Shown here: piece after piece, positions 19,932 to 52,797 of the stretch | How positions within the stretch are numbered: the first letter of the stretch is position 1 | Layout: each line of letters begins with the position of its first letter | Assembly: GCA_964581105.1 (NCBI GenBank) | Contig: CAZOMB010000001.1 | Span: 79,730 to 143,729 of the forward strand | Length of the DNA stretch: 64,000 nucleotides | Direction of reading: 5' to 3' | Origin: Candidatus Micrarchaeota archaeon | Lineage (GTDB): Archaea > Micrarchaeota > Micrarchaeia > Anstonellales > Anstonellaceae | The notes under the pieces: generated by a model | What the model was told of the DNA's origin: nothing | Seen by the model: only the letters and a program-made list of their open reading frames with translations | Database searches by the model: none | Program-made: the position numbers and the translations under genes

Positions 19932-20987
19932 TTGGGCTATATGTTTGAAAGCGTATCTTCGGAAAAAAAGGAAACAGAAACACTCATGAGCAATGAGGAG
20001 GTAAGAATAGCTGTAATTGGAGTCGGCGGAGCGGGCTGTAACACTGTTGGAAGGATGATGAGAAGCGGGATAAAAAGTGCCCAGACAATCGCTGTTAATA
20101 CTGACCAGCTTCATTTGAAAGTCACAAATGCGCACAAAAGGGTTTTGATTGGCTCAAATATCACAAAAGGGCTTGGGGCAGGAGGATTTCCTGAGGTTGC
20201 CACAAAATGCGCTGAAATGAGCAAAGGAAAACTTACAGAAGTAATTGGCCCCCGTGAACTTGTTTTCATTGCAGCAGGAATGGGAGGAGGCACTGGAACC
20301 GGAGCAGCACCTGTAATTGCAGAGGTTGCAAAAAACCAGGGAGCAACAGTTGTTTCTGTTGTTACAATCCCATTCAGGCTTGAAAGGGCAAGAGTGCAAA
20401 AGGCAAAATGGGGCCTTGAAAGGCTTGCAGCAGTTTCAGACACTGTTATAGTGATTGAAAATGACAGGCTTGTGAATTATGTGCCTAACCTTCCTATCAA
20501 TGATGCATTTAACCTGGCAGACGCAATCACTGGCAAGGCAATTACAGGGATTGCTGACACCATAATGTTCCCGTCACTTATGAACATTGACTTTGCAGAT
20601 GTTAAATCTGTGATGGACAATGGGGGCTTTGCCTTGATTTCAATGGGTGAGGGCAGAGGGCCTGACAGGATTGAGCAGGTTGCAAGAAGCACTCTTGAAA
20701 ACCCTCTGCTTGATGTTTCTGCTGAAGGCGCAAAAGGGGCATTGCTTCACATTGGAGGAGGCCCGCAGCTTACCCTTGGAGAGGGAATTGACATTGGAGA
20801 GAAGATTTCAGAGAGCTTTGACCTGAATGCTGACGTAAAAATAGGCGCAAGGCTTGACCCAACCCTTGGAGACGGGCTTTCAGTAACTGCAATAGTAACT
20901 GGCATACACAACCCATATGCACAAGGGACAGCAAAAGCAGACAAGCAAGCCGAAAAAGTCGTGGAAATGGATGTAATCAACTTCTGA
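19932..20987 (+). CDS. ftsZ: cell division GTPase FtsZ (paralog 2); first ATG at 19941 (the ORF-track start at 19932 is TTG)
   Basis: GVGGAGCNTVGRM and [23 protein letters not shown]; 351 aa. A 48-nt tract within the GGGTGTG region is identical to ftsZ1. Confidence 0.9.
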   Translation: MGYMFESVSSEKKETETLMSNEEVRIAVIGVGGAGCNTVGRMMRSGIKSAQTIAVNTDQLHLKVTNAHKRVLIGSNITKGLGAGGFPEVATKCAEMSKGKLTEVIGPRELVFIAAGMGGGTGTGAAPVIAEVAKNQGATVVSVVTIPFRLERARVQKAKWGLERLAAVSDTVIVIENDRLVNYVPNLPINDAFNLADAITGKAITGIADTIMFPSLMNIDFADVKSVMDNGGFALISMGEGRGPDRIEQVARSTLENPLLDVSAEGAKGALLHIGGGPQLTLGEGIDIGEKISESFDLNADVKIGARLDPTLGDGLSVTAIVTGIHNPYAQGTAKADKQAEKVVEMDVINF

Positions 20988-21028: not shown

Positions 21029-21161
21029 GTGGACTGAGGGGGATTTTCAGTCCTTTTTCCAGTTTTTGGTGAAGCTTTTTGCGCCAAAGGCGGAAAAAGG
21101 TTCTTTGAACCCCCGGCCTCGTCGTTGCGAACGACGCGCTCTACCGCTGAGCTATCAGCCC
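21029..21161 (-). tRNA. tRNA-Ala (anticodon CGC) with a ~60-nt intron in the T-loop
   Basis: Minus strand: GGGCUGA-UA-GCUC-AGCGGUA-GAGC-G-CGUCG-UUCGCAA-CGACG-AGGCC-GGGGG-UUCA[intron]AAU-CCCCC-UCAGUCC-A. The G3:U70 pair is the Ala identity element. The intron GAACCUUUUUCCGCCUUUGGCGCAAAAAGCUUCACCAAAAACUGGAAAAAGGACUGAA shares its core with four other tRNA introns in the window. Confidence 0.7.
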
Positions 21162-23812: not shown

Positions 23813-23925
23813 GAAAGTGGTTTGTCTTTAGACCTATTTAATGCTTTGCATAATGTGCACCAGTGGTGGTGTGCTATTATATAAATATAAGGCAGGTGAA
23901 ATTAAGTGTTAGGAGAAGGATTTAT

Positions 23926-24714
23926 ATGGATACAACAGCAGAGAAAACCGCTGTGCTTGCAGCCCTTGAAAGAGCATGGGCAGGCACTTGCAGGGTTGTG
24001 CTCATGGGAGAGGTTGGGCCATTGATGGAATTTGAGCCTTACTTAACTAGGAGGAAGGAGAAGTGCAGGCTTGAAAAGTCATTAATATCTGGAAAGCGGG
24101 TTGCAGTGATTGGCACTTACCCAAAAGGAAGCAGATTCATATCTGACAAAGAGGCTAAACAATACCTGGAAAAAACCAAGGGCATGAAGCTGGACATAAA
24201 TTCAGTAAAAGACATTGACTCTGCTATTGGAGCATTCTCAGAAATTGCAGCATATGCAGGAGATGTAGTGCTTGGAAGGTCATACGGGGTTTTGGAATCA
24301 ACAAAAGTTGTTGAGTCAAGCTATGTGTTTAGCTCATCTGATGCGATTTACAGCAAGTTCATAGCATTCACGCAAATAGCCAAATACTCTGAAAATGTTT
24401 TTGGATGCATAAGCGCTGGAAAAAACTCCCGCTTTGCAATAGCCTGCGCAGAGTCTTATGAGTCTGCACGAACATTTGAGTGCTTTTATGTGTACCATGC
24501 TTCAGACTGCGTTTACAGTGCAAACGTTGAAAACTGCCAGGACTGCATTTTCAGCTTTAACTTAAGGGGAAAGAGGAGGTGCATTGGCAACCTTGAGCTT
24601 GCCCCTGACAAATACAGGCAGTTAAAGGAAAAGCTGCTCTCAGAGGCAAGGCAAATGCTGTCGGAAAAGAAGAGCCTGCCATCAATATATGACATTGTGA
24701 GGGGAAAAACATGA
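23926..24714 (+). CDS. Cys-rich family paralog C, N-terminal module (split gene, part 1)
   Basis: Aligns along its length with the N-terminal halves of paralogs A and B (ERAWAGTCRVVLMGEVGPLMEFEPYL, INSVKDIDSAI, YAGDVVLGRS, CQDCIFSFNLRGKRRCIGNLELAPDKYRQLKEKL). It ends in the inter-module linker with a TGA that overlaps the next ATG (ATGA). Confidence 0.6.
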   Translation: MDTTAEKTAVLAALERAWAGTCRVVLMGEVGPLMEFEPYLTRRKEKCRLEKSLISGKRVAVIGTYPKGSRFISDKEAKQYLEKTKGMKLDINSVKDIDSAIGAFSEIAAYAGDVVLGRSYGVLESTKVVESSYVFSSSDAIYSKFIAFTQIAKYSENVFGCISAGKNSRFAIACAESYESARTFECFYVYHASDCVYSANVENCQDCIFSFNLRGKRRCIGNLELAPDKYRQLKEKLLSEARQMLSEKKSLPSIYDIVRGKT

Positions 24715-25478
24715 GGGAAATAGAAAAGAACTTTGAAACTGTGGCTTCAGTCATACTGGGAAAGCCAGTTGGCCAGCTTCAGGACTATGAAGAGTGGCTG
24801 CTTTCCTGTTCTCCAGAGGCAAGGATAGTTGAAAAAAAGTCAGTTGATAGTGGAAAAAGCGTATACTCATGCTCTGCCCCTTTCTTTTTGGACCTTGGTG
24901 ACAGGGTGGTAAGGGTTGATGAAGCCCTGAAAAGAGGGCAAATGAAGCTTGGCGAAAAGGATGTCAATTCACTTTCCATTTCCAATGCTCCAAAGCTCCT
25001 TTCAGAAATAAGCATAACAACCCCTGAGATAGTTTACGGGGAGAACTTTGGAACTGAAGAATGCTCTGCATATGGCCCGACTCAGCAATGCTTTAGGACA
25101 ACTACATGCTGGTTTTGCAAGCACATAGCATACAGCTACTGGACAAGGACCAGCAACAACTGTTTTGGCTGCTCGCTTGTGACAGACTGTTCATTTTGCA
25201 TAAAGTGCTACAACTCAACAAAGCTTTTGCGCTGCTTAGAGGTAGATACTAGCAACAGCTGTGCAGACTGCCTGTTTTGCCATAACTGCGAAAATCTTTC
25301 TAACTGCATGTTCTGCTTTAATGTGAAAAATTTGAGGTATGCTGTTGGAAATCAGGTGGTTGGGAAAGAGGAATACCTTAGGATAAGGGGCATCTTGTGC
25401 AGCAATATACTTGAAAGCCTTGAGAAAAAGAAAAAGTTTGACCTTAGCATCTACAACATTGGATGCAGGAAGAATTAG
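24711..25478 (+). CDS. Cys-rich family paralog C, C-terminal module (split gene, part 2)
   Basis: Aligns with the C-terminal halves of paralogs A and B (FETVASVILGKPVGQLQDYEEWLL; CADCLFCHNCENLSNCMFCFNVKNLRYAVGNQVVGKEEY; ..LSIYNIGC). Confidence 0.6.
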   Translation: MREIEKNFETVASVILGKPVGQLQDYEEWLLSCSPEARIVEKKSVDSGKSVYSCSAPFFLDLGDRVVRVDEALKRGQMKLGEKDVNSLSISNAPKLLSEISITTPEIVYGENFGTEECSAYGPTQQCFRTTTCWFCKHIAYSYWTRTSNNCFGCSLVTDCSFCIKCYNSTKLLRCLEVDTSNSCADCLFCHNCENLSNCMFCFNVKNLRYAVGNQVVGKEEYLRIRGILCSNILESLEKKKKFDLSIYNIGCRKN

Positions 25479-28027: not shown

Positions 28028-28157
28028 AGAAAGGTATGCCCCTGTAGCTCATCGGTAGAGCGGCTGCCTTGTAAGCAGCAGGTAGTGGGTTCAATGGACC
28101 TTTTTCGGGATGCCTAAAAAGCTCCACCAAAAAGGTCTGAAAATCCCATCGGGGGCT
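28028..28157 (+). tRNA. tRNA-Thr (anticodon UGU) with a ~47-nt T-loop intron
   Basis: GCCCCUG-UA-GCUC-AUCGGUA-GAGC-G-GCUGC-CUUGUAA-GCAGC-AGGUA-GUGGG-UUCA[AUGGACCUUUUUCGGGAUGCCUAAAAAGCUCCACCAAAAAGGUCUGAA]AAU-CCCAU-CGGGGGC-U, then a T-run. The intron termini (GGACCUUUUU / AAAAAGGUCU) are complementary. Confidence 0.7.
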
Positions 28158-31304: not shown

Positions 31305-31464
31305 TGCGGAGAGGAGGATTTTTAGGCGAGTGTTTTTTTGGTGAAGCTTTTTAGGCATCCCAAAAAAGGTTCTCGGAACCCCCGTAGTCACTAGGACACA
31401 AGGTCCTAAGCCTTGCGCATTTGACCAGATTGCAGCACCACAAGGGCGACTCTGCCATCTCCGC
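31305..31464 (-). tRNA. tRNA-Leu (anticodon UAG) with two introns: ~20 nt in the D-loop and ~52 nt in the T-loop
   Basis: GCGGAGA-UG-GCA-GAG[UCGCCCUUGUGGUGCUGCAA]UCUGGUCAAA-UGC-G-CAAGG-CUUAGGA-CCUUG-UGUCCUAGUGACUAC-GGGGG-UUC(C)[GAGAACCUUUUUUGGGAUGCCUAAAAAGCUUCACCAAAAAAACACUCGCCUA]AAU-CCUCC-UCUCCGC-A. After removing the 20-nt insert, the D-loop has the same length as the D-loop of tRNA-Leu(GAG) in this window. Confidence 0.6.
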
Positions 31465-31526
31465 AGCAATGATTGTGGCGGGTAAGCGTTAAAAATGCTG
31501 CATCCAAATTGTATTCTGGTGTATTT

Positions 31527-32696
31527 ATGTCAAATGCATGGCTTGCAATCATCTGCTCTCTTCTGCTTTTTGCATACGGCTGCCCGCAGAAAACTGGGCC
31601 TGTTGTTGTGCAGGAGCCTGTTGTCACTGAGCAGGAGCCTGAAGAACCAGAAGAAGCACAGTTGTGTGGCACTGGCAATATCCTGCAAAAGGATGAGTGC
31701 TTTTTTGAGCTTGCAAAAAGCAACTCAAACCCTGAAACTTGCAAGAACATATATTCTCTTGGCACCCTTGATTCATGCTATGCCTTTTTTGCAGACTCTG
31801 ACCTTGAGGTTTGCAAGAAAATCACTGACTCTGAAATGAAAGCATCATGTCTTACTGAAAATGCAAAAAATGAGGAATCAGAAGATATTTGCAAGCTCAT
31901 TGAAGACATAGCGGCCAGGGAAAACTGCTTAAAAGAGGTTTTGCCCCCTTGCATGCTGATTGCAGATGTTGAAGAAAGGCAGCTTTGCCTTGCATATGAG
32001 AACAATGATTATTCGCTCTGCAAGACAGACTGGTGCCTTTTCGAGTATGCGCAAAACATGTCTGAAGAAGATGCCTGTGAAATGATAGCAACGCAGTCTG
32101 AAAGGTTTGCCTGTACAGCAGTTTCAAGAAAAGATGTTTCTGCATGCTTTGATGCATCGCTTTCCCCAATACAGGATGCTTGCATTGAAATTGCATCAAA
32201 AGAGCTTGACAAGCCTGAGGGCTGCGACCTTGCAACAAACGGGAGCGACTACAAGAACAGCTGCTATCTTTATTTTGCAGTTGAAAACCTTGACACTAGC
32301 TTTTGCAAAAAGGCAGCCCCAGAAGAAGAGAGGGACCAGTGCTATTCTGACTACTCAATAAGGACTGCGACTGTTGATGCATGTCCAGATATAATTGAGT
32401 CATTGAACAGGATTGGATGCTACTACCAGTCAGCATTGCAAAACAGGATGCCGTCCCTTTGCAACCCGCTTGAAAACTCTGCCCAAAGGACAGACTGCTA
32501 CTCAAAGGGGACATTCTCAAAAGAAGGGCCTGCGCCGATTGACTGTGCATTTGTTGAAAGCGAGGTTTGGAGGGACAAGTGCTATTACCAGGCAGCAGTG
32601 AAAAACCAGGAAAGCAGCCTGTGCGCATTCATAACTCCTGGCCATGACAAGGATGCCTGCGAATCACTTTTTGGAGGACCTGCAACAACGCACTGA
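31527..32696 (+). CDS. secreted/lipoprotein-like Cys-pair repeat protein (~13 tandem ~20-aa units, each with 2 Cys)
   Basis: Signal peptide plus lipobox-like LLFAYGC, then a Pro/Glu/Val-rich linker. Repeats have the form [DE]xC[YF]xx[AL]....x5-9..C..I (e.g. RDQCYSDYSIRTATVDACPDI, RTDCYSKGTFSKEGPAPIDCAFV). 26 Cys in the mature part. The ORF track starts at 31473; the internal Met at 31527 is preferred. Confidence 0.45.
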   Translation: MSNAWLAIICSLLLFAYGCPQKTGPVVVQEPVVTEQEPEEPEEAQLCGTGNILQKDECFFELAKSNSNPETCKNIYSLGTLDSCYAFFADSDLEVCKKITDSEMKASCLTENAKNEESEDICKLIEDIAARENCLKEVLPPCMLIADVEERQLCLAYENNDYSLCKTDWCLFEYAQNMSEEDACEMIATQSERFACTAVSRKDVSACFDASLSPIQDACIEIASKELDKPEGCDLATNGSDYKNSCYLYFAVENLDTSFCKKAAPEEERDQCYSDYSIRTATVDACPDIIESLNRIGCYYQSALQNRMPSLCNPLENSAQRTDCYSKGTFSKEGPAPIDCAFVESEVWRDKCYYQAAVKNQESSLCAFITPGHDKDACESLFGGPATTH

Positions 32697-32710
32697 AGGG
32701 ATGTGAGTAA

Positions 32711-33658
32711 ATGATTGATATATACTATGAGGAAAAAGGCAAGGTCAAGTCAGCCAAGGCAGGCTCTTTGAAAAGCCTGAAGGGCAAAAAGATGTGGCTG
32801 GACATAACAGGCATGACTGAAAAGGAGAACAAACTGATACAGGAAATATTTGAATTGCACGCCCTGACAGCAGAGGACCTTTTTGACACAAACAACAGCA
32901 GGATAAAGCTTGAAGAGTTCCCAGAATACCTGTTTTGCGTTTTTTATGGAATCCAAAAGGAAAAGACAATAAAACTGAATGAGATTGATTTCATAATAGG
33001 CAAGAATTTCCTCATTACAAACCATAAAAAGGCAGTTGATTCGTTTGAAACACTGAAAAAAAAGACTGAAAAGCTCGACATGCTGTTCTCAAAAGGTCTT
33101 GATTTTGTATTCCACAAGCTTCTTGACCTGGAAATAGACAATTATTACCCGATTTTGGAGATGATTGACGACCAGATTGAGGCAATTGAGGATGAAGTGA
33201 CAAAAAAGGTCAGGCCCGGCTCATTGAGCAGGATACTCAGCCTGAAAAGGAAAATCATATCAATAAAGCGGGTTGTCATTCCGCAGAGGGAAAAGATTTC
33301 TATGCTGACAAAGGGAGACAGGAAGTTCATATCAAAAAAATCTGTCCCCTATTTCAGGGACATTTATGACCATTCGATAAGGGTTGCTGATACTGTTGAC
33401 AATTACAGGGAGGCTGTTGGCAGCACATTTGACGCCTATATGTCTGCTGTTTCAAATAACATGAATGAAGTCATGAAAATATTGAGCATAATTGCAACAA
33501 TCGCCCTGCCGCTTGTTGTGGTTTCAGGCATATATGGAACAAACTTTGACGTTCTGCCAGGAAAGGACCACCCATATGGGTTTTGGATTATGATAGGGTC
33601 AATGCTTGCGCTGGCTGGCTACATGGTTCATATTTCCAGGAAAAAAGGCTGGTTCTAA
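32711..33658 (+). CDS. corA: CorA-family Mg2+/Co2+ transporter (GTN variant of the GMN motif)
   Basis: Two C-terminal TM helices flank YGTNFDVLP (the CorA signature YGMNF with M replaced by T), preceded by a long cytoplasmic alpha/beta plus coiled-coil domain; 315 aa. Confidence 0.7.
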   Translation: MIDIYYEEKGKVKSAKAGSLKSLKGKKMWLDITGMTEKENKLIQEIFELHALTAEDLFDTNNSRIKLEEFPEYLFCVFYGIQKEKTIKLNEIDFIIGKNFLITNHKKAVDSFETLKKKTEKLDMLFSKGLDFVFHKLLDLEIDNYYPILEMIDDQIEAIEDEVTKKVRPGSLSRILSLKRKIISIKRVVIPQREKISMLTKGDRKFISKKSVPYFRDIYDHSIRVADTVDNYREAVGSTFDAYMSAVSNNMNEVMKILSIIATIALPLVVVSGIYGTNFDVLPGKDHPYGFWIMIGSMLALAGYMVHISRKKGWF

Positions 33659-34494
33659 CTCTTGCTTTGCTTTTCAGGCTTGCTCTCTTTTCCTGCTTGG
33701 GGAGGTTTTTCTTCCCCTTCATCAGAAAGCTTCACATCTTTCTTTTCTGGCTTTTGCTCCGGCTTTTTAACTTCTGGCTTTGGCTGCCCTTGTGTTTTCT
33801 CAGGAGGCTTTTGCTCTGGTTTTTTTTCAGCTGGCTTTGCTGCCACTGGCTTTTGTTCTGACTTTTTTCCAGCTGGTTTCTCAGTTTCGTCTTCTGGCTC
33901 CTGCTCTTCCTCAAATTGCGGAAGGGTGGCAGTGAACTCGTCATATGAGGAAATCCTGTTCCTTCCCATCATGTATTCCCTTGCCAAAAGATAGAATATG
34001 AGCGCAAGAGAGCGCCTGCCCTTGTTGTTGCAAGGCACAGCAAGGTCTATGAACATTGTTATGTTGTCAGTGTCGCAAAGGCCTATTGTGGATATTCCCA
34101 TTTTTCCTGCTTCAACTACTGCCTGCCTTTCTCCTTTTGGGTCGCATACAAGAAGAAGTTTTGGCTCTTTGAAGTCATCCCTGTGGACATTTGTCAGTAT
34201 TCCAGGGATAAACCTGCCATAATATGCATTTATTCCAGTCAGCTTGGAAAAGGTTGACGCAGCATTGCCTGAATATGTCCTTGATGCCACTACCAGTATT
34301 TCAGATGACTCGTATTTTGCGAGGATTTTTCCTGCAAGCCTTATTCTTTCGTCTATTTTCCTCAGGTCAAGGACATAAAGACCGTCATTTCTCCTCCTGT
34401 AAATAAAGGGGTCCATGTCAATTACCTTGAGCCTTGTGCCGATGTGTATTCCTGCCTCAAGGTATGTTTCCTGCTTTATCAGAAAGTTTTCCAT
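33655..34494 (-). CDS. rps2: 30S ribosomal protein S2 (uS2) with ~100-aa Lys/Pro/Glu-rich C-terminal extension
   Basis: ILVVASRTYSGNAASTF, GRFIPGILTN, LLLVCDPKGERQAVVEAGKMGISTIGLCDTDN. The start MENFLIKQ is inferred at 34494. The tail reads ..KPAEKKPEQKPPEKTQGQPKPEVKKPEQKPEKK.. Confidence 0.85.
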   Translation of the reverse strand: MENFLIKQETYLEAGIHIGTRLKVIDMDPFIYRRRNDGLYVLDLRKIDERIRLAGKILAKYESSEILVVASRTYSGNAASTFSKLTGINAYYGRFIPGILTNVHRDDFKEPKLLLVCDPKGERQAVVEAGKMGISTIGLCDTDNITMFIDLAVPCNNKGRRSLALIFYLLAREYMMGRNRISSYDEFTATLPQFEEEQEPEDETEKPAGKKSEQKPVAAKPAEKKPEQKPPEKTQGQPKPEVKKPEQKPEKKDVKLSDEGEEKPPQAGKESKPEKQSKS

Positions 34495-34580
34495 GTTTTC
34501 ACCTTTTGGATTCCCGCATGCCCTTGTTGATGGCAACTCTCGGAACAATCCTATTACAATAAAATGGGACCATCGAGATT

Positions 34581-34803
34581 TGAATTCTCGGGCTCGCGTT
34601 GCTCGCCCGTTTAGAGCCTTTCGGCTCCAAATCTGCCCAAGCCCTTAAGGCTTGAGCATTTCGCGCCCATTCAGCGCAGAGCCACTCGAATCGCCGACAC
34701 CCCAAGCCGGAAGGATAGCCAGGTTACCCCATGGCCCCATCAGTATGGTGGGGACAGCAGTGGCAACAGCCACTCAATGGCCCCAGTCTTTTTTTCAGCG
34801 TGG
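34581..34803 (+). ncRNA. candidate signal recognition particle RNA (7S/SRP RNA), compact (~225 nt)
   Basis: Contains CCAAGCCGGAAGGAUAGCCAGG, resembling the conserved SRP helix-8 motif (GGUCCGGAAGGAAGCAGCC). The 5' end UGGGACCAU pairs with the 3' end AUGGCCCCA. There are multiple internal hairpins (CGAGAUUUGAAUUCUCG; CCCCAUCAGUAUGGUGGGG) and a U-run after 34803. No protein-coding signal on either strand. Confidence 0.4.
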
Positions 34804-34839
34804 CTATGTTCAGCAATGAAAGCTTTTTAAGAGAAATGC

Positions 34840-35772
34840 CTAAGCTGCCCTTTTGAAAGTGTTTAAGGGAACAGACTTGCGCGAGGCTTTTTTCTGCAAA
34901 TCTGAAACTTTTGTGTGCTCTTTCTGCAGCATCTCAAGCAGCTTCAGCTTTTCCTTGTCTTGCAGCTGCTGCATCCCGATTCCGCGGGAAACACAGTTTG
35001 CGTATTTTTTTATCATTGCCTGCACTCGCGGAATTTCACCTGCCACTACTGCATAGCTTTTGGTCTGGTCAACCACTGTGAAGGAGATTATCCTGCCTGA
35101 TGGGTCAATAATGAGGAGCGGAAGTTTTCTTGTGTACATCTTGTTGCTCCCCTTTGCCCTGACAACTGAACTTTTCGAGTAAGCCAAGAGCCTTTTCATT
35201 AGCTCAGGAGAATAGAACGCATCAAAATCATATTTCAAGGAGTCCATGCTCTGCACCTTGACAGTGCTGCCAGAGATTTGTATTTCATCTAAGCCAGAGC
35301 TTTCCATTATTTTTCTCTCAACATGGCGGGCACTGTCTTTTCCCCCAAGTATCTTGCTCAGCTCAGATATCGCAGGTTCTGAGCCTGAATTGGTCAGTAT
35401 TTGGTAATTGTTCTTGAATATTTTGCCGTCAGGCTGAAGGACAAGTGAAACCTTGACGCTGCTGCCATGCTCTTTATTGAATCTTTTCAGGTCTTCTGAA
35501 ACCTCTTCATAGGGCACCGGGTTCTGCTTCACATAGTAGCTCGGAATGTCACCGCTTTCAACCCTGCCTTTAAGTTCACCTACTTTCTTCTTAAGCTCCT
35601 GCTTATCCTCAGGGGTGGCATAGCTTTCTTCTGTTGACTCTGTTTTCCCTCTTGTTTTGAATTCGCTCTCAACTTCCTTGTTTGTTTGGTCTCTGTTGAA
35701 AAAAATCGAGTAAATACCTCCGAAGAAAACGGACACAGCAACTACTATAAGCGCATATGGCTTCCATTTCAT
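34840..35772 (-). CDS. hypothetical membrane-anchored protein (N-terminal TM, extracytoplasmic body)
   Basis: Single N-terminal TM helix (YALIVVAVSVFFGGIYSIFF) then a 280-aa soluble domain; no known motif. It occupies the position where rpoK/eno lie in many archaea. Confidence 0.4.
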   Translation of the reverse strand: MKWKPYALIVVAVSVFFGGIYSIFFNRDQTNKEVESEFKTRGKTESTEESYATPEDKQELKKKVGELKGRVESGDIPSYYVKQNPVPYEEVSEDLKRFNKEHGSSVKVSLVLQPDGKIFKNNYQILTNSGSEPAISELSKILGGKDSARHVERKIMESSGLDEIQISGSTVKVQSMDSLKYDFDAFYSPELMKRLLAYSKSSVVRAKGSNKMYTRKLPLLIIDPSGRIISFTVVDQTKSYAVVAGEIPRVQAMIKKYANCVSRGIGMQQLQDKEKLKLLEMLQKEHTKVSDLQKKASRKSVPLNTFKRAA

Positions 35773-35905
35773 AGGGCTGTTTTTATCTTTTTCAGGACTG
35801 CGTGATTTGTAATCCTTCCCATAAGGACCATCTTGATACTTGGAGTTGCCAGACGTATAACCACTTCTTATCTATTAGCAGTAAGAGGAAATAAAAAGCA
35901 GTTGG

Positions 35906-36103
35906 CTATTTTTTCCTGTATTTCGAGATTTTGTCCATTACTTCCACGTGTGAGAGAAACATTCTCCTGCAGCAGTAGCGGTCAATTCCCATTTTTTCAA
36001 GTATTTGCGCAGGGTTTTTTCCTGCCTTTACCTGCATTGCATATTCCTCATAAAGATTGCCTATCACTGCGCCGCATGTAAAGCACCTGATTGGAAAATA
36101 CAT
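35906..36103 (-). CDS. rpoN: DNA-directed RNA polymerase subunit N (RpoN/Rpb10)
   Basis: MYFPIRCFTCGAVIGNLYEEY...DRYCCRRMFLSHVE carries the CxxC...CC zinc motif; 65 aa; sits in the conserved rps9-rpoN position. Confidence 0.85.
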   Translation of the reverse strand: MYFPIRCFTCGAVIGNLYEEYAMQVKAGKNPAQILEKMGIDRYCCRRMFLSHVEVMDKISKYRKK

Positions 36104-36157
36104 AAATGCACCTCTTCTCTAGTTTTCCGTTAACGCTTTTAGGCAACCCAAAAAGGG

Positions 36158-36595
36158 TTATCTATAAGATTTCTGGAACCTTGCGCGTGCTTTTGGCCCT
36201 TTGTATTTTTTGGGCTCAACACGCCTTGAGTCTTCTGCAATCATGAACCTGTCATATTCAAGTATCTTTTTCTTTAAATTGTCATCCTTTGAAAAGCCAA
36301 CCAATGCCCTGGCAATTGCAACCCTTGCTGCCTGTGCCTGGCCCATCTGGCCGCCGCCAATTACATTGACTGAAATATTTACCTGTGATGCTATTTGCGG
36401 GGCCAAATGAAGGGGCTCTGATACAATGTCCCTTACATATTTGTTGTCAATTGCCCCTAATCTCACGCTGTTTATCCTTATTATCCCCTTTCCTTTTGAA
36501 ACTGAGGCCCTTGCAATGCTCTGTTTTCTTTTTCCCCTGTAAATATTGGGGGAAATGAGCTTCTTTTTCTTTGCTTTTCCCTTCTTTTTTGCCAT
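36158..36595 (-). CDS. rps9: 30S ribosomal protein S9 (uS9)
   Basis: C-terminus ..GPKARARFQKSYR and GGGQMGQAQAARVAIARALV. The start MAKKKGKAKKKK is inferred at 36595; the longer ORF-track N-terminus overlaps rpl13. Confidence 0.85.
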   Translation of the reverse strand: MAKKKGKAKKKKLISPNIYRGKRKQSIARASVSKGKGIIRINSVRLGAIDNKYVRDIVSEPLHLAPQIASQVNISVNVIGGGQMGQAQAARVAIARALVGFSKDDNLKKKILEYDRFMIAEDSRRVEPKKYKGPKARARFQKSYR

Positions 36596-36603
36596 AAATG
36601 CAC

Positions 36604-37020
36604 CTATTCTGCCTTGTGGCCAAGCTGGTTGCAAAGCTCTTTTATTGTGAACATGCCATGCTTTGCCTCTGAGCTTGCCTCTGGAATTTTCTTTGGCTTT
36701 CCCTCTTTTGCCTGCCCTGCTGATACCCTGAGCCTTTTGTATGCGTCGCGACCCCTCTGGCTTTTGTATGGGAGCATGCCGCGAACCATTTTCCTGAGGA
36801 AAAGGTGCGGGAGCCTTGGCCATTTTGGCGAGTGCTCAGGGTTTTGCTTATCTGTTTGCAGCCTCCTTTTAAGGTACTTTTGCTTTGCAGCAGTGAGCTT
36901 TCCGAGCATAACTGCCTTTTCTGCATTGACTATTTCAACTTTTTGGCCTGCAAGCAGGAGCTTTGCAACCCTTGCGCTAAGCCTTCCTGCAACAGCCCTG
37001 TCTGCGTCAATAAGAACCAT
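36604..37020 (-). CDS. rpl13: 50S ribosomal protein L13 (uL13)
   Basis: MVLIDADRAVAGRLSARVAKLLLAGQKVEIVNAEKAVMLGK.. matches the archaeal uL13 N-terminus; in conserved gene order. Confidence 0.85.
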   Translation of the reverse strand: MVLIDADRAVAGRLSARVAKLLLAGQKVEIVNAEKAVMLGKLTAAKQKYLKRRLQTDKQNPEHSPKWPRLPHLFLRKMVRGMLPYKSQRGRDAYKRLRVSAGQAKEGKPKKIPEASSEAKHGMFTIKELCNQLGHKAE

Positions 37021-37029
37021 AGTTCCACC

Positions 37030-37383
37030 TTATTTTATTATCACGAAATCCTTGCCTGTCGGGCTCTTTTTTGCAGCCTCAACAATTGAAATCGCCTTCC
37101 CGCCTGCAGACTCAACCATCTTTTTTGCTGATTCTGAAAACGAAAGAGCTGCAATTGTAATCTTTTCCTTAAGCAAGCCTGCCCCAAGGACCTTGTCAGG
37201 CACAACAATGGTTGAGCCGGCTTTTGCATATTTGGCAATCCTGCTCAGGTTTACCCCTGGCTTTTTCCTGGCAGATGAACAAACAAGCTCAATTACCCTT
37301 TTCCAGAAGGGCGCTTTTCTTGCCTGGGCTGGCATACTTGCAAGGACTTTGATTGCTTTTGGAGAATATTTTTTCTTTGCCAT
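37030..37383 (-). CDS. rpl18e: 50S ribosomal protein L18e (eL18)
   Basis: ..VVPDKVLGAGLLKEKITIAALSFSESAKKMVESAGGKAISI.. matches eL18; in the conserved position between rpoD and rpl13. Confidence 0.8.
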   Translation of the reverse strand: MAKKKYSPKAIKVLASMPAQARKAPFWKRVIELVCSSARKKPGVNLSRIAKYAKAGSTIVVPDKVLGAGLLKEKITIAALSFSESAKKMVESAGGKAISIVEAAKKSPTGKDFVIIK

Positions 37384-37405
37384 TTTCTACACCTTGTTAG
37401 GAAAA

Positions 37406-37538
37406 TGTGGGGGAAGGGATTTTTAGGCAACGATTTTTGGTGGAGCTTTTTAGGCACCCAAAAAAGGTCCGAACCCTCGAAGCCCTAAGGCACCAACCCC
37501 TCAAGCTGGCGCATTTGACCTAGCTCTGCCACCCCCAC
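37406..37538 (-). tRNA. tRNA-Leu (anticodon GAG) with a ~48-nt T-loop intron
   Basis: GUGGGGG-UG-GCA-GAGCUAGGUCAAA-UGC-G-CCAGC-UUGAGGG-GUUGG-UGCCUUAGGGCUUC-GAGGG-UUCG[GACCUUUUUUGGGUGCCUAAAAAGCUCCACCAAAAAUCGUUGCCUAAA]AAU-CCCUU-CCCCCAC-A. Confidence 0.65.
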
Positions 37539-37570
37539 GCATCCGCATGAATTATTCATCAACCCCATAT

Positions 37571-38155
37571 TTATTTCTTGATTTCTGACAGCTGCTTTTC
37601 AAGCTCATTGCACCTTTCAATCACTATGTCTGCTGCGTGAGAAAGGAACTTTTTTGGCTCAAGCTGCATGAATGACTCGACTTTGAACTTGAATTCGTTT
37701 GGCTTGAGAATTTCATAGGAAATAAGGCCTGGCTGGAATTTTGCATGCTTTCTTCCAATCCCCATTCTTGCCTTTGCCTCAAGCCTGACATTCTGGCCTT
37801 CAAGAAGCTTGAGAAGTGGAATGTCTGCAAGGGCAGACTTTATCTTTGAGTCATTGCTCTTGAGCTGCTTTGAGTATATTGTTCCTGGGCCTTGCGCATC
37901 AAGAGTGAATGCTATCTCATCTGATTGCCTTGCTGAGTCTGAAGCCAAAGGAATCTGGCCAAGCCTGTGTGCCAGGTACTCGTCAAACATTGAGGAGCTG
38001 TTCTCATAAAAGGTCACATTGTCAATTGCAAATACAGGGACCTTGCCTATGCCATACCTTCTTATCAAATTGGCAAACGCAGCAGGGGCCCCTTTGAGCC
38101 TGAACTCGAGCCTGTTTTTCTTTTCAAGAGACATTTCAATATCCATAAAAACCAC
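37571..38155 (-). CDS. rpoD: DNA-directed RNA polymerase subunit D (RpoD/Rpb3)
   Basis: ..RLEFRLKGAPAAFANLIRRYGIGKVPVFAIDNVTFYENSS.. has the RpoD N-terminal signature. In the conserved rps11-rpoD-rpl18e order. The true start may be the internal MSLEKK. Confidence 0.8.
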   Translation of the reverse strand: MVFMDIEMSLEKKNRLEFRLKGAPAAFANLIRRYGIGKVPVFAIDNVTFYENSSSMFDEYLAHRLGQIPLASDSARQSDEIAFTLDAQGPGTIYSKQLKSNDSKIKSALADIPLLKLLEGQNVRLEAKARMGIGRKHAKFQPGLISYEILKPNEFKFKVESFMQLEPKKFLSHAADIVIERCNELEKQLSEIKK

Positions 38156-38167
38156 CTGGCAGGTTCT

Positions 38168-38887
38168 TCAGACCCGCCTGCCTCTCCTTCCGCCTGCCTT
38201 TTTGGTTGTGTCAGTCGGAATTGGCGTAACATCCTCAATTTTTCCTATCCTAAGCCCAAGCCTTGCAAGAGAGCGGACAACTGCCTGTGCTCCTGAGCCA
38301 GGGCTCTTTGCCCCATTGCCCCCAGGTGCGCGTATCCTTATGTGCAATCCGGTTATTCCCCTGTTCTTTGCCTCGTTTGCTACTTTTGCTGCTGCTTGCA
38401 TTGCTGCGTATGGCTTTCCTTCTTCCCTGTCAGCCTTTACAATCATTCCACCTGATGCTTTTGCAATTGTTTCTGCCCCTGACATGTCTGTTACTGTGAT
38501 TATTGTGTCATTTTTTGATGAGAACACATGGCACACTGCCCACTTGTATTCGCGCTTAAATCTCCTGGGTGGAACTGCGGTGGTTGCAGCTGGCTTTGTT
38601 GCTGCTGGTTTTTGTTCCACTTTCTGTGCTGGAGGTTTTTGCCCTGGTTTTGCTGCTGGTTTTTTCTCATCTGGCTTTTGCTCCTTTTTTTGCTCTGGTT
38701 TTGGTTCTGGCTTTGTTGCCACTGGCTTTGGTAATGGTTTTTTCTCTGACTTTTGCTCTGGCTTAGAGTGTTCCTTTTTTTCAGCTGGCTTTTGGTGCTC
38801 CTTTTTTGGCTCTGGCTTTGGCTCATGCTTTGGCTTTTTCTCATCTTTTTTCTTTTCAATTGGTTTTTCTGCCACCATAATCACCAT
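38168..38887 (-). CDS. rps11: 30S ribosomal protein S11 (uS11) with ~100-aa Lys/Pro/Glu-rich N-terminal extension
   Basis: C-terminal core ..[63 protein letters not shown].. The N-terminus reads [29 protein letters not shown]... Confidence 0.85.
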
Positions 38888-39486
38888 TAGCCTGCTGCTT
38901 GTGGAGCCTTTGCATCAGGAACAACAGCCTCTTCCTTTTTCTTCTCTTGCTTTTTTGGCTCCTCTTTGCTTTCTGCTTCTGGAGCAGCAGGCTTTTCTTC
39001 ATGAACTGAAATGTCAATTGGTTTTCTGTGTGAAATTTCCTTCTCCTCATCAACCTTGACCAAATAGCTTGGCACTGTCACTTTCTTGCCTTTTACTGAT
39101 ATGAAACCATGGGTAATGAGCTGCCTTGCCTGCCTTGGGGTCCTTGCAAGCCCTTTTTTCATTACAATTGTCTGCAGCCTTCTTTCAAGGAAGCTTTCAA
39201 CACTCAGTGAAAGAATGTCATCAACCTTTGCATCTGCAGAGATTATGCCCAGCCTTGCAAGCCTTGCCATAAGCGGCTTTGCCATTTCAATTCCCTCTTT
39301 GCCAAGGGAAAGGTATTTCATTGCGCCCCTTCTTGCCTTTTTGAGATCCTGCAAAGTCACCCAAATTTCTTTTGTGTTCTTCAATCCATATGCCACTGCA
39401 AGCTTTCTTTCGGTCTTTATCCTGTCAGCATCCCAGATTTTCCGGGGTGATTCGTACTTGTTCTTGAGTTTTCTCGGGTCTCCCAT
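38887..39486 (-). CDS. rps4: 30S ribosomal protein S4 (uS4) with acidic/basic C-terminal extension
   Basis: [42 protein letters not shown].. matches the archaeal uS4 N-terminus. An S4 domain follows, then the tail ..[24 protein letters not shown].. Confidence 0.85.
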
Positions 39487-39491
39487 TCAAA

Positions 39492-40211
39492 TCACTTTTT
39501 TGGCTCTGGCTTTTTTTCAGCTGGCTTTGGGGCAGGCGCTGCTGCTTTTTTCTCTGGAGCTGGCTTTTCACCTGAAGCTGCTGCAGGCGCTGCTTCTGGG
39601 GCTGCCCTTCCTTTGCCGCCTTTTTCCTCTGCCTTGATTTCCTTTGCCTTTTCAAGCACTGCCTTTCTCAGAACGCCGACAGTCATTCCTGTCCTTCCTG
39701 TGCTCCTTGTCCTCTGGCCGCGAACCTTTTGGCCATACTGGTGCCTGTAGCCCCTCCATGTGTAAGCATCCTTTTCATGGTCAATGTCCTGCCTTACAGA
39801 AAAAACCAGGTCTGCGCCAATAAAGTGCTTGCTCTGGCCGGTCATAATGTCATTCTGCCTGTTGAACATCCATGAAGGAATCCCGTATTTGTCAGGGTTT
39901 TGCAAAATTCCCTCAAGCTTTGCTATCTGCTCCTCAGAAAGCTCTCCAACCATTGTCTTTTCATCTATTCCAAGCTGCTCGCAGGCAATCTTGGAAATCA
40001 CTCCGCCAAGGTTTATCCCTATTCCTTTTACAGAAGTGACTGCCCTTTTCAATGGGAATGAGCCCCTTAAGTCCCTTCCAGCAAGCCTTACAATGCCTTT
40101 TACTTCCTTTCCAGAGGCAGACACTATTGGCTTTGCTGCCTGTGGCTGCCTTTTTCCAGGGCCATGGCCTTTTTTGGTTTTTCCTTTTCCGAATTTTGGT
40201 TTTCCAGGCAT
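39492..40211 (-). CDS. rps13: 30S ribosomal protein S13 (uS13) with Lys/Pro/Ala-rich extensions
   Basis: ..IVRLAGRDLRGSFPLKRAVTSVKGIGINLGGVISKIACEQLGID.. is the uS13 core. The C-terminal tail reads ..EKPAPEKKAAAPAPKPAEKKPEPKK. Confidence 0.8.
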   Translation of the reverse strand: MPGKPKFGKGKTKKGHGPGKRQPQAAKPIVSASGKEVKGIVRLAGRDLRGSFPLKRAVTSVKGIGINLGGVISKIACEQLGIDEKTMVGELSEEQIAKLEGILQNPDKYGIPSWMFNRQNDIMTGQSKHFIGADLVFSVRQDIDHEKDAYTWRGYRHQYGQKVRGQRTRSTGRTGMTVGVLRKAVLEKAKEIKAEEKGGKGRAAPEAAPAAASGEKPAPEKKAAAPAPKPAEKKPEPKK

Positions 40212-40236
40212 GTTGAATCAACTTTTAATTGGGAAG

Positions 40237-40438
40237 CGCCGGGAATGGGATTTTTGGGCAAGAACCTTTTTCAGTTTTTGGTGAAGCTTTTTAGGCACCC
40301 CAAAAAAGGTTCTCCGAACCCATACGGCCTTGCGACCACATGCTTGCCGATATTTCACCTTTTCCGTCCACGCTTTTGCGCCGAAGGCGGAAAAGGGTGG
40401 TTCCAGGCATGCGCACTACCAGGTTATGCGACCCCGGC
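40237..40438 (-). tRNA. tRNA-Ser (anticodon GGA), type II, with two introns: ~57 nt at the canonical 37/38 position and ~52 nt in the T-loop
   Basis: GCCGGGG-UC-GCAU-AACCUGGUA-GUGC-G-CAUGC-CUGGAA[CCACCCUUUUCCGCCUUCGGCGCAAAAGCGUGGACGGAAAAGGUGAAAUAUCGGCA]A-GCAUG-UGGUCGCAAGGCCGU-AUGGG-UUCG[GAGAACCUUUUUUGGGGUGCCUAAAAAGCUUCACCAAAAACUGAAAAAGGUUCUUGCCCAAA]AAU-CCCAU-UCCCGGC-G. Confidence 0.55.
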
Positions 40439-40460: not shown

Positions 40461-41363
40461 TTACTTCCAGCTTTTTGGATATTTTCCTTGTTCCATAATT
40501 GTTGTTTCGGGCTTTGCAATTGCGCCCTTTTTCCTTTCTTTCATCTCCTCTGAGGGAATTTCGGCGCACCCAACGCCAATGAATTCCCCAATTTCAGTCA
40601 TAAATGCAACTTTGCCATTCTTTTTTATTCCCATGTCAAATGATACAAGGCCAGGCGCATAAAGCGCTGAGCCAGCGCACAAGGCACCAACAGCAGAGCC
40701 TGCAATCACAACCTTTGGGATGCCAAGCGCCTTTTCAGGAGGGATAAGCAATTCCCTTATTCTTGATTCATCCCCTTTCTCCTTTGCAAGCCACATTGCA
40801 TCAGATATCTTCTGAAGCATGTGTGATGATTGCTCAGGCATGCCCCCAACTGAGATTCTTCTCAGCTCAAGCATTTCTGCTTTGCCGCAGAACCTTCCGA
40901 ATTCTGAAACAAGCACGCGGACATAGGTCCCGGCTTCGCAGTGCACCTCGAAAAGTACCCTGTTGGGCTTTATTTGGATGAGCTTAATATAATAAACCTT
41001 TCTCTTCCTTGGCTTTTTTGCAACTGCGCTTTGCTTCGGCGGAGTTTGGGTTATTGTGCCTGTGAATTGCCTGAAAATTGCCTTTATTTTCTTTTCGGTG
41101 ACTTTTTCGCCTGTTTTCATTAAGCACACGTACCTTTTGTCCCTTTTTGTAAGGTATGGGAGAAGCCTTGTTGCTTTCCCTATGCCTACTGGCAGCACCC
41201 CTGATACTTGTGGGTCAAGTGTTCCGCAGTGGCCTGACTTGTTTGCGCCAAGTATTTTTTTCACCCAGGAAGACACTTCATGCGAAGAGGGCCCCCTGGG
41301 CTTGTCAACTATCACAAAAGAGCATGAGAGCAAACTTTGAAGGGCTTTTTTGGATGGAAACAT
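40461..41363 (-). CDS. cbf5: tRNA/rRNA pseudouridine synthase Cbf5 (TruB family, H/ACA RNP catalytic subunit)
   Basis: TruB motifs VDKPRGPSSHEV and GHCGTLDPQVSGVLPV (catalytic Asp); C-terminal PUA-like region; 300 aa. Confidence 0.85.
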   Translation of the reverse strand: MFPSKKALQSLLSCSFVIVDKPRGPSSHEVSSWVKKILGANKSGHCGTLDPQVSGVLPVGIGKATRLLPYLTKRDKRYVCLMKTGEKVTEKKIKAIFRQFTGTITQTPPKQSAVAKKPRKRKVYYIKLIQIKPNRVLFEVHCEAGTYVRVLVSEFGRFCGKAEMLELRRISVGGMPEQSSHMLQKISDAMWLAKEKGDESRIRELLIPPEKALGIPKVVIAGSAVGALCAGSALYAPGLVSFDMGIKKNGKVAFMTEIGEFIGVGCAEIPSEEMKERKKGAIAKPETTIMEQGKYPKSWK

Positions 41364-52305: not shown

Positions 52306-52797
52306 TCATTTGTCACCAGGTTTTGGAGCTGGTTTGTTTTCAGCTGGTTTTTCTTGTTTGGGTTTTTCAGGCTGCTTTTCTGGCTTTTTTGCGAATGTTT
52401 CTGCAGCTCCGCCTGCTTTTTTTATTTTTTCTGCTGCGCCTTTTGAGAATGATTGCGCTTTTACTGTTACTGGGGCGGTTATCTGGCCTGTGCCAAGCAC
52501 TTTGCCGTCAAATTCAAAGTAATCCTTTCCTTCACGCTCTTTTAGCTTTCCTTTTTGTGCTAGCTGGTCTATCTGAAAAAGGTTGATTGTCCTTATTTTT
52601 GCTTTTGGCAATGGGGAAAAACCTTGTACACCGAAATAATTTGGCTCATAGCGCGTAATATATGTGAAGCGGTGCTTTTGCATTCCTGCCCTTCCCCAGC
52701 CGCCTTTGCTGCCCTTGCCCCTCTTGTTCTTTGTGTTACCTGTGCCATGGCTGCGGGTCCCGTGGAACTTTCTGCTTCTTTTTCTTTTCCTTTTCAT
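52306..52797 (-). CDS. rpl15: 50S ribosomal protein L15 (uL15) with Lys/Pro/Glu-rich C-terminal tail
   Basis: MKRKRKRSRKFHGTRSHGTGNTKNKRGKGSKGGWGRAG is the uL15 N-terminus. The tail reads ..KKPEKQPEKPKQEKPAENKPAPKPGDK. Confidence 0.85.
   Translation of the reverse strand: MKRKRKRSRKFHGTRSHGTGNTKNKRGKGSKGGWGRAGMQKHRFTYITRYEPNYFGVQGFSPLPKAKIRTINLFQIDQLAQKGKLKEREGKDYFEFDGKVLGTGQITAPVTVKAQSFSKGAAEKIKKAGGAAETFAKKPEKQPEKPKQEKPAENKPAPKPGDK

Follow-up and report, generated by a model that had tools for sequence, protein, structure and literature searches.

tRNA-Leu(UAG) and tRNA-Ser(GGA) genes with two probable bulge-helix-bulge introns each, and a hairpin repeat shared among tRNA introns, in a Micrarchaeota-like archaeon

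We analyzed a 64,000-nt stretch of DNA (contig CAZOMB010000001.1 of assembly GCA_964581105.1; hereafter the window, with positions counted from its first letter), archaeal by the annotation of its proteins, in which two tRNA genes on the minus strand each carry two inserts. The tRNA-Leu(UAG) gene (31305-31464) encodes 160 nt, or 86 nt without its two putative introns: a 20-nt D-loop intron at position 15/16 (UCGCCCUUGUGGUGCUGCAA, 31430-31449, HBh' type) and a 54-nt T-loop intron at 56/57 (31322-31375), which holds an A-type copy of the hairpin element described below. The tRNA-Ser(GGA) gene (40237-40438) encodes 202 nt, or 84 nt without a 56-nt intron at the canonical position 37/38 (40345-40400, B-type hairpin element with tip CCGCCUUCGGCGC) and a 62-nt T-loop intron at 56/57 (40254-40315, A-type element), all on the minus strand. 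We think it very probable, judging from sequence, that both genes specify precursor tRNAs with two archaeal bulge-helix-bulge (BHB) introns each. A first-pass annotation of the same DNA had already named both genes as doubly interrupted at these sites, and splicing in silico, BHB motifs in register, and orthologues without the D-loop and anticodon-loop inserts all bear it out.

Read on the minus strand, the D-region of tRNA-Leu(UAG) is GCGGAGAUGGCAGAG[UCGCCCUUGUGGUGCUGCAA]UCUGGUCAAAUGC, with the insert in square brackets, and the whole gene is GCGGAGA-UG-GCAGAG[UCGCCCUUGUGGUGCUGCAA]UCUGGUCAAAUGC-G-CAAGG-CUUAGGA-CCUUG-(variable arm)-GGGGG-UUC[54 nt]AAAU-CCUCC-UCUCCGC-A. The D-loop insert, earlier sized at about 20 nt, measures 20 nt, and its site can now be placed at 15/16. 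Its removal leaves a D-loop, GAG-UCUGGUCAAA, with the length and pattern of that of the window's tRNA-Leu(GAG), GAG-CUAGGUCAAA, as had been noted, and equal to that of two orthologues, GAG-CCWGGUCAAA; removal of the T-loop insert yields GGGGG-UUCAAAU-CCUCC. We took the BHB geometry of each strand, 5' to 3', as a 4-nt central-helix strand followed by a 3-nt bulge cut after its second nucleotide (cut marked by an arrow). In the D-loop motif, G10-C11-A12-G13 (GCAG) is perfectly paired with intron CUGC, the bulges are A14-G15↓U and A-A↓U16, and an inner helix CGCC/GGUG with a 5-nt loop (CUUGU) abuts the central helix; the outer helix has 1 bp, which makes the motif one of HBh' type. In the T-loop motif, GGGU (51-54) pairs with GCCU, with bulges UC↓C and AA↓A and a 3-bp h' helix, GAG/CUC. 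The open reading frame (ORF) that adjoins this gene is annotated with 462 aa, and its annotated start codon is probably wrong.

The tRNA-Ser(GGA) gene lies between cbf5 and rps13, a position conserved in relatives, and reads GCCGGGG-...-CAUGC-CUGGAA[56 nt]A-GCAUG-(variable arm)-AUGGG-UUC[62 nt]AAAU-CCCAU-UCCCGGC-G. At 37/38 the anticodon stem CAUGC/GCAUG forms the outer helix and C32-U33-G34-G35 (CUGG) pairs with UCGG; the 3' bulge, C-A↓A38, is regular. Opposite the 5' site, AA↓C, five additional nucleotides are left unpaired (a 3x5 internal loop), so that the motif is of relaxed form. The intron proposed here thus stands, at 56 nt and with this refinement of its motif; the separation of the two stem halves, first put at about 57 nt, is 63 nt, that is, a 7-nt loop plus the 56-nt insert. 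The BHB-constrained fold of this region has an energy of -29.3, against -30.3 for the minimum free energy (MFE) fold. In the T-loop, GGGU pairs with GCCC, the bulge is UC↓G, the 12-bp inner helix is GAGAACCUUUUU/AAAAAGGUUCUU, and the BHB is the MFE fold itself. The T-loop introns claimed for both genes are accordingly both present, at 54 nt (Leu) and 62 nt (Ser), and both can be refined to 56/57 with a central helix GGGU/GCCY.

ARAGORN called tRNA-Leu(tag), with a perfect 7-bp acceptor stem, and tRNA-Ser(gga) solely when both inserts of the gene were taken out. With one insert removed it gave no call for either gene, except for an aberrant Leu model whose mismatched acceptor stem is made of intron sequence; the check for alternative tRNA models that do better without these introns thus favored the introns, normal calls being obtained solely after removal of both inserts. 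An unbiased two-intron search of all 22 non-coding segments of the window recovered both genes with unchanged boundaries; its calls fell in five segments, each at a tRNA gene, and the remaining 17 gave no call. Each of the four inserts shows a BHB-type motif in precisely the register that restores the tRNA (GCAG/CUGC with 3-nt bulges in the Leu D-loop, GGGU/GCCY in the two T-loops, and the relaxed CUGG/UCGG at Ser 37/38). Among 200,000 shuffles per insert, a BHB in register giving the same mature tRNA arose with a frequency of 0.0016 for the Leu D-loop, 0.003 for the Leu T-loop, 0.004 for the Ser T-loop, and 0.032 for the Ser anticodon loop. Taken by itself, a plain BHB scan tells nothing, with about 18,000 chance candidates in the window, and was used jointly with tRNA restoration. 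Two other kinds of tRNA gene or intron were considered and rejected: a group I intron (the inserts are 20-62 nt long, and Rfam at gathering thresholds gives tRNA matches alone in the window) and a split or permuted tRNA (the exons are adjacent, in normal order and on one strand).

We consider the comparison with orthologous sequences the strongest evidence. Distant Micrarchaeia contigs, in which gene order is kept, were fetched via S13 homologues (loci and contigs outside the window are cited by L numbers). The tRNA-Leu(UAG) orthologues lie in the same neighborhood, just past rps2 and beside a protein of about 390 aa without a Pfam match, with a Na/H exchanger beyond it in L063. In L063 and L064 they have the identical acceptor stem GCGGAGA/TCTCCGC and read GGCAGAG-CCWGGUCAAAUGC, an uninterrupted D-loop of exactly the length predicted by removal of 20 nt (MAFFT misplaced the 20-nt gap in this alignment, which was read by eye). 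Their anticodon stems covary (CAAGG/CCUUG, CAGGG/CCCUG, CGGGG/CCCCG), which argues that the genes are functional. Among the tRNA-Ser(GGA) orthologues (L055, L057, L059, L061), those of L059 and L061 have an uninterrupted anticodon loop, CUGGAAA, equal to the predicted splice product; the same 37/38 junction holds a 23-nt insert in L057 and a composite insert of about 190 nt in L055/L056. The 56/57 intron of tRNA-Ser(GGA) occurs in all five lineages (the window and the four others) with the same GCCC-AA↓A end and unrelated interiors. tRNA-Leu(GAG) is uninterrupted in L057, L059, and L061, with a T-arm equal to the predicted product GAGGGUUCAAAUCCCUUC, and tRNA-Thr(UGU) of L064 has an uninterrupted T-arm, GUGGGUUCAAUUCCCAU, again as predicted, which confirms the 56/57 and 59/60 junctions. 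Further introns in the D-loop were seen in relatives from the same metagenomes (L028 Gln, L035 Val, L039 Thr, and, by eye, L046 Met). In these patterns the inserts behave like introns: between conserved exons, and at fixed junctions, they come, go, and change in length. Since the junctions of the orthologues agree exactly with the prediction, it is almost certain that the archaeal splicing endonuclease cuts the inserts out as introns.

Exact-protein look-ups also returned contigs of the same organism (L048-L054, 99.9-100% identity), which are independent assemblies of several samples made by different pipelines (Logan SRR6963311 and SRR6963479, JGI 3300029258 and 3300017989, and two ENA assemblies). 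The tRNA-Leu(UAG) locus is identical in four of these (L051-L054) and the tRNA-Ser(GGA) locus in three (L048-L050), in each case every assembly that covers it, which indicates that the loci are not assembly artefacts.

The two genes are not isolated cases: of the seven tRNA genes in the window, tRNA-Ser(UGA) alone is intact, and the other six together contain eight introns. tRNA-Leu(GAG) (37406-37538, minus strand) has one 48-nt T-loop intron (37423-37470) at 56/57. tRNA-Ala(CGC) (21030-21161, minus) has a 60-nt T-loop intron of hBH type (21044-21103) at 59/60, in which the central helix is UUCA/UGAA, the T stem serves as outer helix, and the tip CCGCCUUUGGCGC is shared with the Ser 37/38 intron. 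tRNA-Thr(UGU) (28038-28157, plus) has a 48-nt T-loop intron (28096-28143) at the same position with a strict hBHBh' motif (UUCA/UGAA, h' 9 bp, h 5 bp). In tRNA-Pro(GGG) (34565-34737, minus) the intron lies at 53/54 and is 100 nt long (34585-34684); it has a clean motif (UUCG/CGAG, h' GGCUC/GAGCC) and several internal hairpins, and it is unrelated to the core common to other introns. The orthologues in L063 and L064 have shorter introns with other interiors, apparently at the same site as judged by eye. On the raw window, ARAGORN and Rfam together reported just three tRNAs, neither of the two doubly interrupted genes among them, and their calls for Ala (21087-21161) and Thr (28038-28111) have false 3' ends made of intron sequence; the true ends are at 21030 and 28157. 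One to three extra copies of the 5' acceptor strand stand upstream of the window's tRNA-Pro and of the tRNA-Ser and tRNA-Pro genes of relatives (window 34738-34790; L055 3620-3690; L059 1560-1730; L063 14175-14330), and those of L063 form acceptor-stem mini-helices (GGGGCCAU-UCC-AUGGUCCC). These copies could be leader-processing signals, remnants of an integration site, or an acceptor-stem intron.

One hairpin frame is common to the Ser 37/38 intron, to the T-loop introns of Ala, Thr, Leu(UAG), Leu(GAG), and Ser, and to an intergenic copy; the 20-nt Leu D-loop intron and the 100-nt Pro intron lie outside the family. The three longer introns of our two genes are thus copies of a repeated hairpin element spread among the tRNA introns of the lineage. 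Copies of the element in the window lie at 21061-21103, 28095-28134, 31335-31373 (the nhmmer match within the Leu(UAG) T-loop intron), 36136-36159, 37432-37470, 40273-40313, and 40345-40400, and within tRNA genes they occupy positions 56/57 (Leu, Leu, Ser), 59/60 (Ala, Thr), and 37/38 (Ser). The Ser 37/38 insert contains CUUUUCCGCCUUCGGCGCAAAAG, which matches CUUUUUCCGCCUUUGGCGCAAAAAG of the Ala T-loop insert; the first-pass annotation had remarked on the resemblance of these two hairpins, and our comparison groups them in repeat family D9 at 74% identity. The intergenic copy is of B type (36123-36169, minus strand, repeat family D7 plus nhmmer match), has the foot helix UAAC/GUUA, and sits in an rps9-rpoN spacer of about 57 nt, as compared with 9-24 nt in L057, L059, and L061, which suggests that the element also inserts outside tRNA genes, within an operon transcript.

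A 21-nt core pattern, GCCTAAAAAGCTYCACCAAAA, was found at 31 loci in JGI metagenomes (L017-L047), and a hidden Markov model built from four window copies gave 47 strong matches in the window and these loci. The core folds into a hairpin in which a 3-4-bp foot is followed by a position that is C.C (sometimes G-C), by a CUUUUU/AAAAAG stem, and by a tip that varies; its tail is ACC-AAAAA in the A type and ACGG-AAAA in the B type. In 34 distinct copies the foot covaries (G-A-A/U-U-C in 20, G-G-A/U-C-C in 14, discordant in none), and the feet of the B type are CCAC/GUGG, UAAC/GUUA, CAAC/GUUG, GAAC/GUUC, and GGAC/GUCC. Tips and frames recombine: A as well as B frames carry GGGNUGCC, and the same is true of CCGCCUUYGGCGC, whereas further tips such as GUCUGCGGAC were seen on B frames and longer two-hairpin modules at the tips of A frames. 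The Leu(UAG), Leu(GAG), Ser, and Thr T-loop introns are A frames with GGGNUGCC; the Ser 37/38 intron combines a B frame with CCGCCUUCGGCGC, and a tip almost identical to that one stands on the A frame of the Ala T-loop intron.

Many tRNAs of other organisms hold the core in D-, anticodon-, or T-loop introns, and the genes concerned are often interrupted twice (L018 Ala, L024 Glu, L026 Gly, L028 Gln, L039 Thr, and L045 Lys, on a cautious reading); the core also forms tandem or nested arrays. It is 95-100% identical among organisms whose protein-coding DNA fails to align. In 16S rRNA it has the sense orientation in L047 and the antisense orientation in L036/L040; by our own reading of the L036 sequence, a BHB (UUAG/CUAA and GAGA/UCUC) still flanks the inverted core. 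In L046 it stands about 120 nt downstream of the RNase P RNA gene, within a tRNA-Met anticodon-loop intron, and at L017 and L037 it lies within RNase P-like sequences that Rfam does not call. Two contigs of the window's own organism stop inside the element (the 3' end of L050 corresponds to window 37468 and the 5' end of L054 to window 31344), which indicates that it fragments metagenome assemblies. In a third, strain L049, the flanking genes and tRNA-Leu(GAG) exons are identical to those of the window, and a different intron occupies the same 56/57 boundaries (L049 4700-4940): it is composite and about 100 nt longer, with foot GAA/UUC, not GGA/UCC, a two-hairpin tip module, a nested B-type copy, and a longer closing helix. 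On these sequences the difference looks like replacement of the intron rather than simple divergence.

The proposal, made beforehand from the window alone, that these introns exchange modules therefore holds in part: the common frame, the combinatorial tips, and the composite L049 intron speak for it, and it does not extend to the Leu D-loop intron, which is not in the family. Common descent from a repeated, probably mobile element explains the common frame at least as well as exchange between resident introns. The element shows the features of a repeat family (a multi-copy non-coding hairpin in both orientations and in unrelated contexts, with a different allele in L049) and those of a transposed intron family (highly similar introns in different tRNAs and at different positions). 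The hairpin core gives a stable inner helix, and the BHB strand specific to each target resides in a few flanking nucleotides outside the core. Two processes may be envisaged. In one, the core would insert into introns that already exist, with either orientation tolerated, as in the Ser 56/57 and anticodon-loop introns; in the other, whole introns would be copied between sites with the same exon tetranucleotide, that of the conserved T-loop, and the Leu(GAG) intron, which three relatives lack, would illustrate this. We go one step further only tentatively, and with a little less than even confidence, in proposing that the core is an autonomous-looking, orientation-independent mobile hairpin of Micrarchaeota that colonizes, enlarges, and sometimes creates BHB introns. 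Its hosts may include D-, anticodon-, and T-loop sites of tRNAs, 16S rRNA, perhaps other structural RNAs, and operon spacers, and it may pass between strains and species. The intron replacement in L049, the de novo T-loop intron of tRNA-Leu(GAG) relative to three relatives, and the 95-100% identity of the core fit such a proposal.

Several searches around the element gave nothing. Neither the element nor a D-arm like that of tRNA-Leu(UAG) was present in the viral contigs scanned, and contigs of genomes matched by S4 (distant relatives with 47-50% identity) have no copies of the element. No terminal inverted repeats, target-site duplications, or cognate transposase were noticed, no systematic search having been made. 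A link of the core to the circular RNAs of IS200/IS605 (PMC12558985) yielded nothing relevant, and our literature search found no description of such a covarying, orientation-independent hairpin repeat. We rejected the core as a C/D-box or K-turn RNA, the sense orientation having no C/D boxes or GA.AG motifs, and we also considered a role in promotion or termination of transcription; constraints of the BHB and the T-loop account for the GCCYAAAAAUCC end.

For the two doubly interrupted genes, we envisage that the end of the exon leading up to each 5' splice site (in the D stem, G10-G13; across T stem and T-loop, G51-U54; in the anticodon loop, positions 32-35) would pair with the four intron nucleotides that directly precede the 3' splice site, and that this 4-bp helix would put both cleavage sites in or beside 3-nt bulges. 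The non-canonical motifs have no outer exon-exon helix (HBh' type), and the 5' bulge of Ser 37/38 is loosened. A broad-specificity EndA would cut the bulges to give 2',3'-cyclic phosphate and 5'-OH ends, as can be extrapolated from PMC5829648, PMC4090602, and PMC3239211. Following the established archaeal pathway, an RtcB-type ligase would join the exons and probably circularize the introns. The D stem, the T stem, and the elbow made by the D-loop and T-loop would form only after excision, so that both introns would have to go before the tRNA is functional; in tRNA-Leu(UAG) both arms of the elbow would be disabled until then.

A number of observations weigh against reading the four inserts as spliced introns. 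The central helix of Ser 37/38 has two G.U pairs and, on its 5' side, an internal loop with no clean bulge. The BHB of the Leu D-loop has an energy of -4.7 kcal/mol as compared with -15.3 for the MFE fold, in which exon 1 pairs with exon 2, and its pairs make up about 3% of the ensemble; a weaker, 21-nt register of this intron is also accepted by ARAGORN. The pipeline that combines BHB with ARAGORN produces many spurious models around real tRNAs (a "tRNA-Cys" at the Leu locus, dozens at L022) and is not proof alone, for which reason we relied on the orthologues. Among the 30 proteins of the window none matches tRNA_int_endo or RtcB, and we infer excision in vivo from sequence. All introns that bear the element have runs of U5-U7 on the transcribed strand (e.g., 31356-31361, 37451-37456, and 40294-40299), which we take to resemble archaeal termination signals. 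Folding of whole precursors at minimum free energy did not reproduce structures with a cloverleaf plus BHB, except for the Ser T-loop.

We weighed four other accounts of the inserts. If the genes were pseudogenes, inactivated by the repeat and by a small D-loop insertion, with function supplied by other copies in the genome, it would make sense that three of the four inserts are built on a multi-copy core, one also present between genes and, in both orientations, in 16S rRNA. We find this very unlikely. The exons are perfectly canonical after excision, and the BHB strand of each insert is complementary, in the correct register, to the exon that it adjoins. Interruptions of this kind affect six of the window's seven tRNAs, which cannot all be dead, and the Ser(GGA) 56/57 intron is kept in five lineages whose exons covary in a compensatory manner. 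Archaea, moreover, usually have one gene per tRNA species (PMC4307357).

The weakness of the D-region fold bears on a second account, in which the 20-nt D-loop insert is retained in mature tRNA-Leu(UAG) as an expansion hairpin and the T-loop intron alone is spliced; the insert is short and forms a small hairpin of its own, which would suit it. Against it stand a central helix of four Watson-Crick pairs with no mismatch, its 3-nt bulges, and the 4-bp hairpin directly beside it, all in exact register (shuffle P = 0.0016), the separation of A14/G15 from G18/G19 by an insert that sequesters a strand of the D stem, the orthologues with a normal D-loop, and the recurrence of D-loop introns in relatives from the same metagenomes. 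D-loop HBh' introns are also cut by broad-specificity EndA in other archaea (PMC5829648), and we give retention just as little credence as the pseudogene account. The 21-nt register (31431-31451, central helix UGGC/GCUG) has slightly less in its favor still. Its product passes ARAGORN, and counting G.U pairs gives it an h' of 5 and an h of 3; its helices are, however, rich in G.U, and its D-loop is 1 nt shorter than those of tRNA-Leu(GAG) and both tRNA-Leu(UAG) orthologues, the length that the 20-nt register reproduces exactly. The two registers predict different mature D-loops, GCAGAGUCUGG for 20 nt and GCAGAUCUGG for 21 nt. Finally, the ends of L050 and L054 show that assemblers struggle inside the element, but chimeric assembly at repeated sequence has next to no probability given a D-loop insert that is not repetitive and two loci that are base-for-base identical across samples and pipelines.

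The interrupted genes stand in a cluster with the order cbf5-[tRNA-Ser]-rps13-rps4-rps11-rpoD-[tRNA-Leu(GAG)]-rpl18e-rpl13-rps9-rpoN-...-[tRNA-Pro]-rps2, and the window also encodes aEF1A, two FtsZ, an ATP-dependent DNA ligase, and a diphthamide synthase. The closest S4 (47-50% identity) and S13 (65-75%) proteins belong to metagenome-assembled genomes (MAGs) named Candidatus Micrarchaeota, Micrarchaeia, or Anstonellaceae, and these names point to a Micrarchaeota-like DPANN placement of the host. In L049, about 31 nt of cbf5 that correspond to window 41189-41219 are gone (at about 1035 of L049), with loss of the GTLDP catalytic motif and of the frame, which indicates either a defective allele or a local misassembly. 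S2, S11, S13, and other ribosomal proteins have long low-complexity extensions, apparently rich in Lys, Pro, Glu, and Ala (composition judged by eye), whose DNA makes up repeat families D1-D4 and D8 (33660-33900, 38590-38860, 39490-39640, 52320-52450, 55020-55240, and 60960-61130). The two FtsZ paralogues (15821-16885 and 19932-20987) lie 4 kb apart and have in common a 131-nt stretch of 80% identity (repeat D6). ORFs near this pair that have no Pfam match carry a common DNA motif of the type TGC-AAC-AAC-TGC-GAA-AAC (D11, D19), with D11 copies in the ORFs at 18172-19773, 23863-24714, and 24711-25478.

For annotation, the consequence is practical. Standard finders miss or mis-end six of the seven tRNA genes of the window, and MAGs of the lineage will therefore seem to lack many tRNAs; automated annotation of the lineage will be systematically wrong, and doubly interrupted genes call for searches that are explicitly BHB-aware. 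Our two genes add new combinations of sites, D-loop 15/16 with T-loop 56/57 and 37/38 with 56/57, and their precursors would need remodelling at both arms of the tRNA elbow before folding. The wider interest lies less in double interruption than in the make-up of the introns, with a conserved hairpin repeat, constrained in structure and common to introns, genes, strains, and species, which offers a tractable system for the gain, exchange, and loss of protein-spliced introns. Should the hairpin be mobile, it would be a concrete vehicle for the transposition of archaeal introns, with a bearing on how protein-spliced introns spread.

Comparison with known systems places the two genes in a documented class. 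Positions 53/54, 56/57, and 59/60 are already on record as intron sites, as are genes with as many as three introns (PMC4090602, PMC3239211). The two genes, with two introns each and exons colinear on one strand, show all the testable defining features of the class of multiple, non-canonical BHB introns already documented in Micrarchaeota (ARMAN-2) and Thermoproteales, and double interruption as such would not surprise a specialist in archaeal tRNA processing. Candidatus Micrarchaeum acidiphilum ARMAN-2 is of the same phylum-level lineage by S13 and S4 and has 56% of its tRNAs disrupted, with two introns in one T-loop; in-vitro cleavage of a 59/60 hBH intron is documented for its epsilon2 EndA (Fujishima et al. 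2011, PMC3239211). It resembles the present case in that most tRNAs are interrupted, at non-canonical sites that include T-loop 59/60 hBH introns, with more than one intron per gene and relaxed BHB motifs; it differs in the proportion interrupted (six of seven here), in that 15/16 and 56/57 are used here, and in the common hairpin core, which the excerpts of PMC3239211 do not report for ARMAN-2.

Thermoproteales (Sugahara 2008 and Fujishima 2010, via PMC4090602) likewise have up to three BHB introns per gene, and near-identical introns at different sites, from which gain at the DNA level has been inferred; the 2014 review calls the mechanism of transposition unknown (PMC4090602). They belong to TACK, not DPANN, and their intron sequences form an unrelated family; the core found here, unlike theirs, is a covarying hairpin that occurs also between genes and in 16S rRNA introns, in both orientations, and is 95-100% identical across organisms with non-aligning coding DNA. 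Pre-tRNA-Glu(UUC) of M. kandleri carries a canonical and a D-loop HBh' intron (PMC5829648) and so shares with tRNA-Leu(UAG) a D-loop HBh' intron beside a second one and the need of a non-canonical site for a broad-specificity enzyme. The partner intron of tRNA-Leu(UAG), however, is in the T-loop rather than at 37/38, and the fragments described for M. kandleri suggest a D-loop site at about 20/21, as compared with 15/16 here. In Caldiarchaeum subterraneum, tRNA-Thr introns are heterogeneous at the population level (PMC3293823), and near-identical genomes there differ in tRNA intron content as L049 and the window do at tRNA-Leu(GAG); that difference involves a 1.8-kb element encoding a recombinase, whereas the modules here are non-coding hairpins of 30-50 nt with no recombinase seen nearby.

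The element is also comparable to miniature inverted-repeat transposable elements (MITE) and repetitive extragenic palindromic (REP) sequences, in that it is short, non-coding, hairpin-forming, and multi-copy, is found in either orientation, nested or in tandem and between genes, and breaks assemblies. To our knowledge, BHB introns of structural RNA genes are no described niche for repeats like MITE or REP, and it is inside such introns, unlike MITE and REP, that most copies of the present element lie.

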